Shown here piece by piece: positions 11,610-15,007 of a stretch of DNA of 15,374 nucleotides (position 1 is its first letter; every line of letters starts with the position of its first letter). The notes beneath the pieces were generated by a model that was not told the DNA's origin, searched no databases, and saw only the letters and a program-made list of their open reading frames with translations. This DNA comes from a virus (lineage: Duplodnaviria > Heunggongvirae > Uroviricota > Caudoviricetes): IMG/VR virus record IMGVR_UViG_2778261572_000010. The stretch is one strand, 5' to 3'. The position numbers and the translations under genes were made by a program.

Positions 11610-12245
11610 TTAACGAGCAAGTATATTCAAAGAGTTCAATAACTGAGCATCTAATGTTTCTCTTACTGGAGTAGGAAGCCCATATGCAACTCTGTAATTT
11701 TTGATAGCAGTTCGTGTCGCAGGCCCCATACTTCCGTCTATATTGCCGTTATAAAACCCTTTATCCAGTAATGCGAACTGCACTCGCATGATCAAACGCT
11801 TACGCTTTTCAGTATCAGAAGCCAGCCCACTACTTGCACGAGTAGTTCCATTCATTCCAGCAGAGTTTGTGGTCGTAGAGGCATCGGTGTCATTTGAGCG
11901 AAGCGAACGAACAGATGAAGAAGACGATGGCGAATTTGTACCTGAATTGGATGAGCCTGATGAGCTTGGTGAACTGTATGTTTTAGGATAATAAGGAGTG
12001 CTTCCACCATAGTACCCACCACCAGACGAAGATCTATGAGAACTATGGCTTCGATGGGAGCTATGACTACGATGCCCTGCAATGTAGAAAGGTACTTCCG
12101 TGTTAAGTGGAGCTATAACTAAATCATGCTCATTAAGAGTAATACCGGGCAAATCACTTGCACCAGTGGAGGAATCACTTGCCCATACAGAATTATTGAG
12201 TGCTAAAAATCCCGGAAGCAGAGCAGCGAAATTAAATTTTTTCAT
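11610..12245 (-). CDS. hxsA: His-Xaa-Ser repeat protein HxsA: signal peptide, five His-Xaa-Ser repeats, Ser/Gly/Tyr-rich linker, C-terminal peptidoglycan-binding-like domain; 211 aa
   Basis: Start placed at the internal ATG at 12245 (MKKFNFAALLPGFLALNNSVWA, signal-peptide-like), which overlaps the upstream stop as ATGA. HRSHSSHRSHSSHRS is encoded at 12030-12074. The C-terminus FALLDKGFYNGNIDGSMGPATRTAIKNYRVAYGLP resembles a PG_binding_1 domain. Sits in a four-gene radical-SAM cassette. Confidence 0.85.
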   Translation of the reverse strand: MKKFNFAALLPGFLALNNSVWASDSSTGASDLPGITLNEHDLVIAPLNTEVPFYIAGHRSHSSHRSHSSHRSSSGGGYYGGSTPYYPKTYSSPSSSGSSNSGTNSPSSSSSVRSLRSNDTDASTTTNSAGMNGTTRASSGLASDTEKRKRLIMRVQFALLDKGFYNGNIDGSMGPATRTAIKNYRVAYGLPTPVRETLDAQLLNSLNILAR

Positions 12246-13354
12246 AAAATTGGTCTCGGTGGTTGATGAAAACGGCCTTTTGATGAACTGAAATAACCAG
12301 CACAGGAAGACTTCTGAGTACATTCATCACATTCTTTGGGGTAGTAATTTTTCCAGTCAGAAATTGACTGAGTAGCAAATCCCCAAGCTCTTTCAGGAAG
12401 ATGGCACAATGGGTAATTGAAGATTGTTAGGGTGATGCCTGACCTTTGTGCTGTTCCTATGGCAGAGAGAATTTTCTCACTATAGCTATCATGCTCAATG
12501 AAGATTGATGACCAGTTTTTACGTGCCCAGCCGATAGATTCTAACCCCATAAGAGAAATCTGGTTGATATTGGAAAACACGCGACCAGCGAACTCTATGA
12601 TTTTGTCCAGTTCCATATAGTTAGCCAGTGTCGGAATGATTCTTAACTCAATGTTGATCCCTGAGTTACCGGCATTGATAAGCCCCATAACTGTCTCATC
12701 AAATGCCCCTTCGCTTCCAACCAGATAGTCATGAACTGACGACCTTGAAGAATAAAGCGGAATACCGAAAGTTATTTTGAGCTTTTCGCTTCGATCTTTC
12801 ATCTGTTGAGTAAAACCGACATCTGCAAACTTTCGTCCATTGGTCAAAACATGCAAAGCTGTCTCAGGTGAGTTTTCGATTATGAAGTCCAGAAATTGCA
12901 AGAAATCTTCGCCATACAGTAGAGGTTCTCCCCCACTCACTCCTACTACACCATTCAGGGAGAAAGAGGCGATGGCAAGTGCTGACTGGTTAAGAAGCCA
13001 GTCATCGTTTCCTGTCTTAGGAGGCTGAGAACAAAAAAGGCAACGGTTGTTGCACCTTTCAGTTACCAGAACAGTGTTATGGTTTGCTCTCCGTGACAAA
13101 ATCACCCTAATCATGTTGCCATTGTTAACAATCCCTATATCACCATCTTCTATGGAATTGAAAAGATCAGTGCTCACAACGAAGTCTGCAAAATATGCAG
13201 GAAGTCTGGAATCAAGTTGAGTTTTACTGACCAGTAAATTTGGCAGATAGAATTGAGGATTTTCGGGCTTAGATTTGCACAAGCGATAGAAACCTTGCTG
13301 AACTGGCAGATCTGCCGTAAATCTGAAAATGTCGTTTCTCAGCACCTCAGACAT
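12242..13354 (-). CDS. Radical SAM maturase of the His-Xaa-Ser system (HxsB/HxsC family; tentatively HxsB by adjacency to hxsA), 370 aa
   Basis: CxxxCxxC radical-SAM motif (VTERCNNRCLFC) and a C-terminal Cys cluster (CDECTQKSSC). Start taken at ATG 13354, which overlaps the upstream stop by 8 nt and has a G-rich site upstream; the track's longer start is 13390. Confidence 0.85.
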   Translation of the reverse strand: MSEVLRNDIFRFTADLPVQQGFYRLCKSKPENPQFYLPNLLVSKTQLDSRLPAYFADFVVSTDLFNSIEDGDIGIVNNGNMIRVILSRRANHNTVLVTERCNNRCLFCSQPPKTGNDDWLLNQSALAIASFSLNGVVGVSGGEPLLYGEDFLQFLDFIIENSPETALHVLTNGRKFADVGFTQQMKDRSEKLKITFGIPLYSSRSSVHDYLVGSEGAFDETVMGLINAGNSGINIELRIIPTLANYMELDKIIEFAGRVFSNINQISLMGLESIGWARKNWSSIFIEHDSYSEKILSAIGTAQRSGITLTIFNYPLCHLPERAWGFATQSISDWKNYYPKECDECTQKSSCAGYFSSSKGRFHQPPRPIL

Positions 13355-14735
13355 AAGCCCACCCTTTAAGCATCTTTGCCATCGGTCCATCCTGAGAGAT
13401 TTCGTTCAGAAGGAAGCGGAACATGCCTTTGTGATACTGGCAGAAAGTAGAACGACTCTTGTCACCAACAGGTTCGCCATGAACACTAATGTTCTGGCAA
13501 GGATCTGCTCCACAGAAAGGCTGGTATGCACAGGTGTCACAACCTGGCATGGCGAAGTTAAATGAAGATGAGAGAGCGGAACGGTAGTATTCGTTGCTAC
13601 TGAATGAGAGTGAGGCAAACTCTCCTGCACTGAAATCTGCTTCCGGGTTTACTTTCTGAAGCATACGACTTTCATCACTACCGTAGACTTTACCGTCATA
13701 ATTGAACAGGATGCAGTTCAGCACAACTCCGCTTGGCGATTTTAGATCTGCATAACCACTGAAGCCTGGATTGAAAATTCGCTTGAGATGAATAGCAGCC
13801 GAGTGCTCAATGACAGGTATTCCCTTTTCATTCTGAATCAACACTTCCTGCATCAACTCTTTATAAAAAGCAAAATACTCTGGCATTGAAAAAGTGAAGC
13901 TCTGCTTCTGAGCAAACCCATAAGGACTAACAGGCCTGATAAACATGTCTGTAAGACCCAGAGACAAATGAGCATCTACTATGGAAGCTGGCTCTTTAGT
14001 CAGCTCCTTAGTAACTGTGGTAACCGTAGCTACCCGGTTTGCGCCAAGTTCTTCTGTGATTTTCCGAATACCAGTTACTGCTTTGTTATGAGCTTGAAAG
14101 TCAGTAAGGATGCGATTCTTGTTATGGACAGCTTCATTCCCATCGAGCGAGACCGAGAAGGTGATATTCCGCTCTTTAACCCATGAGAGAATGCTTTCAT
14201 CGAGTAATGACAGACTTGTAGCAATCACCATTTCAAAAGCATCACTACCCAATGAAATCTCACACTCGTGATAGATTGACTGAACAAGATCGAACCTGAG
14301 AAGTGGTTCACCGCCCTGTACTTCTATCTTGTAGGGAGGTGTACCTAGTTTCTTAATGGTGCTGACAATTTGCGGTATCAGTTCAGGATTGAGGTCATAA
14401 CCATCAGCGGTGACCGATGCCCTACTGACCTGGCAATATTTGCAAGTATGATCACAACGAAGAGTAGGTACAATCATGAAGATTGGCCTGATCGCCAGTT
14501 CATTCATGAGTCGTTTGGCAAAAGCCGAACTTAGTGCATAAGGGGTAACGGAGGAAGATTCATCTCCGCAAATGAAAAGTTTGCTTTCAAGCGATGAGGA
14601 CTGTTCTTGACTGATGTGACCGTTTACCAGATCGAGAAATTCCTGCTCTCCTAAAAAATGATGAAAGCCAGCGAGGTTACTGATGAATACCCGGCCGTCA
14701 GGCATCCTGTCGAAGTTAAAAGGCATGAGTTTCAT
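13347..14735 (-). CDS. Radical SAM/SPASM-domain maturase of the His-Xaa-Ser system (HxsB/HxsC family; tentatively HxsC by adjacency to hxsD), 462 aa
   Basis: CxxxCxxC motif (LRCDHTCKYC) plus a C-terminal SPASM/twitch-like cluster (CDTCAYQPFCGADPC). Start overlaps the hxsD stop (TAATG at 14733-14737). Confidence 0.9.
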   Translation of the reverse strand: MKLMPFNFDRMPDGRVFISNLAGFHHFLGEQEFLDLVNGHISQEQSSSLESKLFICGDESSSVTPYALSSAFAKRLMNELAIRPIFMIVPTLRCDHTCKYCQVSRASVTADGYDLNPELIPQIVSTIKKLGTPPYKIEVQGGEPLLRFDLVQSIYHECEISLGSDAFEMVIATSLSLLDESILSWVKERNITFSVSLDGNEAVHNKNRILTDFQAHNKAVTGIRKITEELGANRVATVTTVTKELTKEPASIVDAHLSLGLTDMFIRPVSPYGFAQKQSFTFSMPEYFAFYKELMQEVLIQNEKGIPVIEHSAAIHLKRIFNPGFSGYADLKSPSGVVLNCILFNYDGKVYGSDESRMLQKVNPEADFSAGEFASLSFSSNEYYRSALSSSFNFAMPGCDTCAYQPFCGADPCQNISVHGEPVGDKSRSTFCQYHKGMFRFLLNEISQDGPMAKMLKGWAYV

Positions 14736-15007
14736 TATGCAAGCCTGTCATCTATGCTTCGGAGAACCTTGCTGATGATGGCATCACGCAACTGACCAGT
14801 TTGATGGTGAAGTTTCTCACGGAGGCTAAAATCGTTTAACAACCTTGCGAATTCAAACTCACATTCAGGACCACCTATCTCAAAGAAGATAATCCACGAG
14901 GATATGTTTTCTTCAACTTTCCATGGGCTTACAGGAGTCATCCAGTATAGGGTGTTTCGGATAACCCATTCAGAATAAAGATTTTTTTGTAATATCTTTT
15001 CCCACAT
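14735..15007 (-). CDS. hxsD: His-Xaa-Ser system protein HxsD (LLNDYxLRE-motif family), 90 aa
   Basis: Contains LLNDFSLRE, matching the family-defining LLNDYxLRE motif as I recall it. First gene of the cassette. Start placed at ATG 15007 with AAGGT about 7 nt upstream; the track starts at GTG 15010. Confidence 0.8.
   Translation of the reverse strand: MWEKILQKNLYSEWVIRNTLYWMTPVSPWKVEENISSWIIFFEIGGPECEFEFARLLNDFSLREKLHHQTGQLRDAIISKVLRSIDDRLA

Follow-up and report, generated by a model that had tools for sequence, protein, structure and literature searches.

The region at 11610-15007 of the Caudoviricetes record IMGVR_UViG_2778261572_000010 (IMG/VR; 15,374 nucleotides, the whole of which is called the window below) raises the question of whether four overlapping genes there make up a complete His-Xaa-Ser (HXS) cassette and what such a cassette does for the cell that carries it. 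An earlier note, made from the sequence without database searches, had recognized a cassette of this kind and had called its function uncharacterised; the latter statement is out of date, HXS having been shown to be an anti-phage system that blocks the entry of phage DNA (Li et al., Nat Commun 2026, PMC13128918; bioRxiv 10.64898/2026.01.06.697848, January 2026). The analysis presented here leads us to propose that the region is an intact hxsDBCA operon, i.e. an HXS anti-phage defence system, a reading to which we assign a probability of about 0.85; we infer that this allele is also expressed and active. The four genes are as follows.

14735-15007, minus strand: hxsD, a small accessory protein of 90 amino acids (aa), or of 91 aa from an alternative GTG start at 15010.
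13347-14735, minus strand: hxsB, a radical S-adenosylmethionine (SAM) maturase of 462 aa.
12242-13354, minus strand: hxsC, a radical SAM maturase of 370 aa.
11610-12245, minus strand: hxsA, an effector of 211 aa that is predicted to be exported.

The genes are co-directional and are arranged as hxsD-hxsB-hxsC-hxsA, with the two radical SAM genes adjacent to each other; the order D-B-C-A accounts for 99.6% of HXS systems (Li et al., 2026). With the starts of the four open reading frames (ORFs) taken as those giving tight junctions, the sequence reads TAATG between hxsD and hxsB (an overlap of 1 nucleotide, nt), ATGTCTGA between hxsB and hxsC (8 nt) and ATGA between hxsC and hxsA (4 nt), exactly the co-directional arrangement and the overlaps that had been described before. 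Family membership was judged with the NCBIfam equivalog models and their curated cut-offs, a hidden Markov model check that the earlier note had itself proposed. All four proteins score above these cut-offs: HxsD matches TIGR03976 over its full length (93.3 bits, cut-off 50, E = 8.7e-27), HxsB matches TIGR03978 over residues 3-460 of 462 (582.1 bits, cut-off 370), HxsC matches TIGR03977 (406.1 bits, cut-off 267.9) and HxsA matches TIGR03979 (167.6 bits, cut-off 121.65). The E-values of the four matches, 1e-27 to 1e-175, are far beyond chance, and scores against the variant models HxsA2 (NF038296), HxsA3 (NF038309) and HxsC4 (NF038332) lie far under the cut-offs. The cassette is thus complete, as had been claimed, and its HxsB and HxsC can now be told apart; no family model was missed and no radical SAM motif is disrupted, the two outcomes that the earlier note had named as fatal to its identification.

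Both maturases retain their cysteines. In HxsB, the CxxxCxxC motif reads CDHTCKYC (C94, C98 and C101; 14433-14456) and a SPASM/twitch-like cluster lies near the C-terminus (C399, C402, C408 and C432; 13440-13541); in HxsC, the motif reads CNNRCLFC (C101, C105 and C108; 13031-13054) and a C-terminal cluster is formed by C317, C342, C345 and C351 (12302-12406). The description of two radical SAM enzymes, one of them with a SPASM-like Cys cluster, therefore stands as regards the pair but not as regards the 'one', since both have C-terminal clusters. Conservation was assessed in homologue sets drawn from 80 species-level hxs loci: the Cys residues of HxsB are invariant in 79 homologues, save for C432 (kept in 74 of the 79), and the seven of HxsC are all invariant in 75. 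Secondary matches of HxsB to SPASM maturases reach residues ~416-448, and of the two enzymes only HxsB aligns through its C-terminus. The residues mutated by Li et al. (2026), namely C98/C101 and C399/C402 of HxsB and C105/C108 and C342/C345 of HxsC, carry the same numbers in the window proteins; their mutation abolishes or weakens the function of the system. PADLOC v2 (2023) gave only weak pVip matches of 23-29 bits to the radical SAM cores, a result that is uninformative because its library predates the discovery of HXS and holds models neither for HXS nor for DUF6119, the family of a neighbouring gene discussed below.

For the small protein HxsD, the earlier note had cited an LLNDYxLRE-type motif; the type is correct, and the actual reading here is LLNDFSLRE (aa 56-64; 14816-14842). 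An LYW motif occupies aa 20-22 (14942-14950). Residues Y21, D59 and R63 are kept in 80/81, 78/81 and 81/81 homologues, respectively, and are equivalent, with a shift of 2, to the residues Y23, D61 and R65 mutated in the HxsD of Li et al. (2026).

HxsA opens with a signal-peptide-like segment (aa 1-22; 12180-12245), MKKFNFAALLPGFLALNNSVWA followed by SD, in which the pattern of n-, h- and c-regions was judged by inspection. Five HxS repeats, HRSHSSHRSHSSHRS (12030-12074), end in SHRSS (12027-12041) and are followed by a linker rich in Ser, Gly, Tyr and Pro and then by a PG_binding_1 domain at 11673-11786 (PF01471; 24.6 bits, cut-off 23). The N-terminus and the repeats agree with the earlier description of a secreted His-Xaa-Ser repeat protein. 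The numbering of HxsA is in register with that of the published protein (PMC13128918): the signal peptide spans residues 1-22, four Leu chymotryptic sites fall within 23-47 and the register also holds for the peptide that starts at N48. All HxsA and HxsD positions probed by mutation in the literature are retained in the window proteins. The published ion at m/z 714.5 (5+, ~3567.46 Da) does not fit residues 48-78 of the window HxsA plus 8 Da (3388.55 Da); the mass of residues 48-79 with 8 and 16 (Tyr oxidation) added, 3567.61 Da, agrees with it only to within rounding and is not used as evidence. The protein departs from the classical scheme of ribosomally synthesized and post-translationally modified peptides (RiPPs), a short precursor from which a modified core is released, in that its 211 aa include, besides a signal peptide and a linker, a folded peptidoglycan (PG)-binding domain.

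The function of such an operon is known from the work of Li et al. (2026), who cloned hxsDBCA of Escherichia coli MEM (CP012378). This operon restricts 110 of 113 coliphages, the three that escape being T4, another Tequatrovirus and P1, and all four genes are required. Defence involves no abortive infection and leaves phage adsorption unaltered, while T7 DNA takes about 30-50 min to enter instead of about 8-12 min, as followed by a DpnI/Southern assay and transmission electron microscopy; T7 escapers carry mutations in the ejectosome proteins gp15 and gp16. HxsA is periplasmic and binds DNA, and its function needs the signal peptide (1-22), the PG-binding domain and each of the five repeats. 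Its N-terminal processing takes place only with intact HxsB, HxsC and HxsD, a +8 Da modification was mapped to SHRSS, and HxsD is bound by HxsC (PMC13128918). The earlier note had suggested that the HxS repeats of a substrate destined for export are modified by the two radical SAM enzymes, and had pointed to a role in defence; these experiments agree with it.

The mechanism proposed for the window operon is carried over from these experiments with the homologous E. coli operon. HxsB and HxsC, the latter complexed with HxsD, would act on pre-HxsA in the cytoplasm. The +8 Da modification would then be set in the last repeat (SHRSS) and N-terminal processing would be enabled. Directed by its signal peptide, mature HxsA would be exported and would be fixed to peptidoglycan by its C-terminal PG-binding domain, from where the five basic His-Xaa-Ser repeats may hinder the passage of phage DNA across the periplasm. 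Infection would in this way be halted prior to genome entry and the cell would not be killed.

Several considerations weigh against the reading of the region as an HXS defence operon. The evidence for defence comes from the operon of a relative and not from the allele in the window. HxsA has 214 aa in E. coli MEM and 211 aa here, the numbering of HxsD is offset by 2 and the likeness of the two was judged by published residue numbers; because of these slight differences in HxsA length and HxsD positions, the window operon can be assigned to the same system, whereas its allele need not be identical. Compared with a second E. coli lineage, the window proteins share only 63% (HxsD), 76% (HxsB), 81% (HxsC) and 87% (HxsA) identity. 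An IS629-like insertion removes everything beyond position -144 relative to hxsD, and expression could be altered by it. The mechanism as published moreover has gaps, which concern reconstitution in vitro, the chemistry behind the +8 Da change and the modification state of the mutants, which escaped checking (Li et al., 2026), and phage DNA normally crosses the periplasm within a protein channel. 'Electrostatic capture', the engagement of incoming DNA by the basic repeats, is therefore a hypothesis of Li et al., and one that we infer here too.

The 3.4-kb DNA of the cassette is 100% identical to hxsD, hxsB, hxsC and hxsA as annotated by PGAP, with nine E. coli chromosomes among the matches listed. 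Since the operon is routinely annotated and its function has been characterised experimentally, the HXS cassette is already known, and the earlier note was right both in what it identified and in its guess at the function. The cassette alone adds nothing new; the only leads with some novelty are its linkage to a DUF6119 gene and a supermodule that includes recombinase and ParB genes, the components of which are listed here.

9984-11591, minus strand: DUF6119/TIGR04141 gene, 535 aa (TIGR04141, 521 bits).
6152-7708, plus strand: large serine recombinase with Resolvase and Recombinase domains.
7698-8594 and 8591-9487, plus strand: two ParB/RepB-like genes (ParB_N, RepB).

The DUF6119 gene is a linked fifth gene that the four-gene account of the earlier note had missed. 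It starts 18 nt past the stop of hxsA on the same strand, behind a weak AGG ribosome-binding site, and no terminator-like site was found between the two; to judge from the sequence, it is probably co-transcribed with hxs. Its product has a predicted nuclease-like fold, which may be PD-(D/E)xK-like. A comparison of DUF6119 with the sequences in the PDB gave no significant match, the literature on DUF6119/TIGR04141 offered incidental mentions only, and DUF6119 and the recombinase trio had no match among plasmids.

These features invite the alternative that the functional unit here has five genes, the DUF6119 protein being cytoplasmic, co-transcribed and cooperating with the Hxs proteins, for example by degrading the phage DNA that HxsA has slowed. 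We consider this unlikely, although the linkage itself is stable. Besides the 18-nt gap with its weak ribosome-binding site and lack of a terminator, the adjacency of hxs and DUF6119 (with a gap of ~20 nt) recurs in the other two E. coli lineages and in seven further genera (Yersinia, Enterobacter, Citrobacter, Erwinia, Pectobacterium, Pantoea and Phytobacter). Identities of 94, 82, 80 and 58% for DUF6119 track those of HxsB/HxsC (95, 80, 76 and 72%), and since the divergence of the one follows that of the others, the genes must long have been co-inherited, across Enterobacterales. Within the DUF6119 clade at at least 54% identity, ten of the 12 loci checked adjoin hxs and one more adjoins an hxsD remnant. 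Against cooperation stands the finding that the four hxs genes alone gave full defence, the fifth gene never being mentioned (PMC13128918). Moreover, 17 of the 21 species-level D-B-C-A loci are without DUF6119, and either partner persists without the other: in O55:H7 DUF6119 is frameshifted and hxs intact, while in one Pectobacterium locus hxsBCA has been deleted. Distant DUF6119 genes stand alone in defence-island contexts, beside Mrr, type I restriction-modification, AAA_15 or KAP NTPase genes. In the Pectobacterium locus (P. actinidiae, L091, 5733-7605), an hxsD remnant precedes an intact DUF6119 gene and hxsB, hxsC and hxsA are missing; DUF6119 can therefore outlast the hxs genes. The notion that DUF6119 is a universal component of HXS was rejected, as the gene is present in only three of the 80 species loci.

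The serine recombinase and the two ParB-like genes (6152-9487) are convergent with DUF6119-hxs, and the same convergent trio is found in Enterobacter (L008, 13749-17038), Pectobacterium (L092, 7604-10981), Pantoea (L094, 7605-10891) and Phytobacter (L095, 11240-13599); in the second E. coli lineage (L003) the arrangement is the same and the trio is truncated. The G+C content of the trio is about 33%, against 42-44% for hxs. The recurrence of trio and DUF6119-hxs in five genera suggests a conserved supermodule of ~9.4 kb. An extension that we consider unlikely would be that an Enterobacterales sub-lineage combines hxsDBCA with a co-transcribed DUF6119 as a second, cytoplasmic layer directed at the DNA that HxsA delays, within a ~9.4-kb supermodule that the trio may mobilise or maintain. 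If true, the functional linkage would give DUF6119 a role and would amount to a layered defence at and just behind the point of DNA entry.

A different alternative accepts the four-gene operon as intact but holds it to be poorly expressed or silent, an insertion sequence (IS) having removed its native regulatory DNA in a first step of decay such as is seen in other strains. Two features upstream of hxsD bear on it.

15155-15374, plus strand: left end (inverted repeat and start of orfA) of an IS629-like element of the IS3 family, which runs off the window.
15078-15106, minus strand: promoter-like site GTAACA-17-TATCAT upstream of hxsD, from a consensus scan (9/12 matches).

Identity with IS-free genomes stops at 15154, so that the IS lies 144 nt upstream of hxsD and, as the earlier note had observed, adjoins the cassette; the 220 nt of its end are 100% identical to elements annotated as 'IS3-like element IS629 family transposase'. 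This exact configuration, an IS629-like element 144 nt upstream of hxsD, occurs in none of 5,426 complete E. coli genomes. The idea of a silent cassette draws on the junction at 15154/15155, where the intergenic DNA of IS-free genomes extends for about 1 kb, on the many E. coli copies that are disrupted by an IS inside hxsB or hxsC and on the fact that native HxsB, HxsC and HxsD are already under the detection limit of Western blots (Li et al., 2026). On the other side, the four ORFs of the window are intact and identical to the IS-free copies, and the sole upstream block that is conserved between hxs lineages, GTAACA-17-TATCAT with its surroundings (about -70 to -115), lies within the retained 144 nt. 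This promoter-like block is common to both E. coli hxs lineages and to Citrobacter, Enterobacter, Klebsiella and Raoultella. We therefore regard loss of expression as quite improbable; hxs is probably transcribed from the promoter-like site, which the IS has left in place upstream of hxsD, with expression preserved.

Elsewhere in E. coli, the elements IS3, IS2, ISVsa5, ISEc47 and IS100 interrupt hxsB or hxsC in many copies (~7 of 60 sampled records; the interrupted operons are locus L002 and hits H1, H12-H15, H84, H86, H109 and H115). Since various IS elements sit inside these two genes, decay of the operon is common, and the repeated interruption suggests recurrent inactivation, possibly since the system is costly.

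Matches to hxs were found in 110 of the 5,426 complete E. coli genomes (about 2%), none of them plasmid-borne; 61 are at at least 99% identity and 44, with a nucleotide identity of about 74%, represent the second lineage. Two architectures can be distinguished among the 80 species-level loci. D-B-C-A, to which the window belongs, has a long HxsA with mostly HRS/HSS repeats and is found in Gammaproteobacteria (21 species loci). In A-D-B-C (loci L026-L084), which is widespread in Actinomycetota, Acidobacteriota, Pseudomonas, Bradyrhizobium and others, HxsA mostly has ~90-125 aa and carries 4-9 HxS repeats. Experimental tests cover the D-B-C-A architecture only. In some A-D-B-C loci hxsA is present twice or the cassette is duplicated (L054). 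The spread of A-D-B-C contrasts with the published figure of 99.7% of HXS systems in Pseudomonadota.

The wider surroundings of the cassette are those of a genomic island, whose features within the window, together with an adjoining prophage, are these.

4449-4475, plus strand: remnant of the 3' end of ssrA (transfer-messenger RNA, tmRNA), the attachment (att) site of the island; CGGGTTCAACTCCCGCCAGCTCCACCA aligns with the end of the annotated ssrA in L001.
4640-5869, plus strand: P4/CP4-57-type tyrosine integrase (NF007246, 443 bits against a cut-off of 434; Arm-DNA-bind_3, Phage_int_M and Phage_integrase domains).
9615-9827, plus strand: 3' fragment of a second P4-type integrase gene, within a 292-nt direct repeat.
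1-4475: integrase-proximal end of a phiP27-like (Stx-phage-like) lambdoid prophage, with moron genes, a lipoprotein gene (1308-2135), an excisionase gene (2980-3189) and an integrase gene (3117-4316).

ARAGORN and Rfam searches found no RNA genes in the window, which holds no complete tmRNA gene but only the last ~27 nt of ssrA. Positions 4449-15154 are 100% identical to an island that directly follows the annotated ssrA in several E. coli genomes, and in IS-free genomes this island runs for more than 15 kb beyond hxsD and includes a relaxase. By sequence comparison, the island is mobilisable and has ssrA as its integration site, and it carries the hxs cassette as cargo in its interior, in line with the island cargo position first ascribed to the cassette. 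The earlier placement of the cassette between a P4-type integrase and an IS was correct in that both are present, but there is no simple bracketing: the integrase is ~5.7 kb away, with four genes and an integrase fragment in between. Since related genomes without the IS continue past hxsD, the IS is an insertion inside the island and not a boundary of it. That the integrase and the IS might be the two ends of one element was rejected, given that the island extends past hxsD in IS-free genomes. The prophage end abuts the 27-nt ssrA remnant, and at ssrA, prophage and hxs island are therefore arranged in tandem. Of the direct repeat (9560-9851 against 5602-5893, 76% identity), the copy at 5602-5893 is the 3' end of the P4-type integrase gene. 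The two copies flank the recombinase/ParB trio, and in O55:H7 (L004), Klebsiella and Raoultella, too, hxs is bordered by 3' fragments of integrase genes. Such fragments hint at cassette exchange by recombination at integrase genes.

Least probable is the view that the primary role is not phage defence and that the system would instead make a product of RiPP type, a factor for competition or a His-rich protein that binds metal in the periplasm, resistance to phages being incidental: HxsB does resemble the SPASM peptide maturases PapB, anSME and CbpB, His-rich repeats are typical ligands of metals and the A-D-B-C architecture with its short HxsA (~90-125 aa) looks more RiPP-like, but the published evidence for D-B-C-A is direct (110/113 phages restricted, signal peptide, PG-binding domain and all repeats required, DNA entry delayed), HxsA here has 211 aa and a folded domain for anchoring and is not a leader-core peptide, and hxs sits in a mobile island beside other defence-type cargo.

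Read as an HXS anti-phage operon, the region can be set beside known systems. It is a standard member of the His-Xaa-Ser system of TIGRFAMs/NCBIfam (TIGR03976-TIGR03979), no difference having been found; the families are credited in PMC13128918 (its ref. 22) to Haft & Basu (J Bacteriol 2011). The closest comparison is with the HXS of E. coli MEM, which is from the same species and from the same kind of chromosomal, non-prophage location; both operons comprise the four Hxs families and have the order D-B-C-A, five HxS repeats ending in SHRSS, a 22-aa signal peptide and a PG-binding domain. The window copy differs in having an IS629-like element 144 nt upstream and DUF6119 18 nt downstream, neither of which is discussed in PMC13128918. 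With its protein identities of 63-87% to the other E. coli lineage, the window operon also provides a second, naturally diverged allele set for testing the generality of the mechanism.

The radical SAM core of HxsB and HxsC is also that of anSME, PapB, CbpB and the prokaryotic viperins, although the scores of HxsB and HxsC lie far beneath the cut-offs of those families. The substrate is also of another kind, an exported protein of 211 aa in Hxs as opposed to a short peptide or a nucleotide in other radical SAM/SPASM maturases and viperins, and Hxs, unlike these enzymes, requires two paired radical SAM proteins together with HxsD. The Imm and Sp superinfection-exclusion proteins of T4 have no sequence relationship to Hxs, are phage-encoded and narrow in range, and involve no radical SAM maturation, yet they arrive at the same outcome (PMC13128918): the incoming DNA is halted at the envelope without having reached the cytoplasm, and the cell is not killed.

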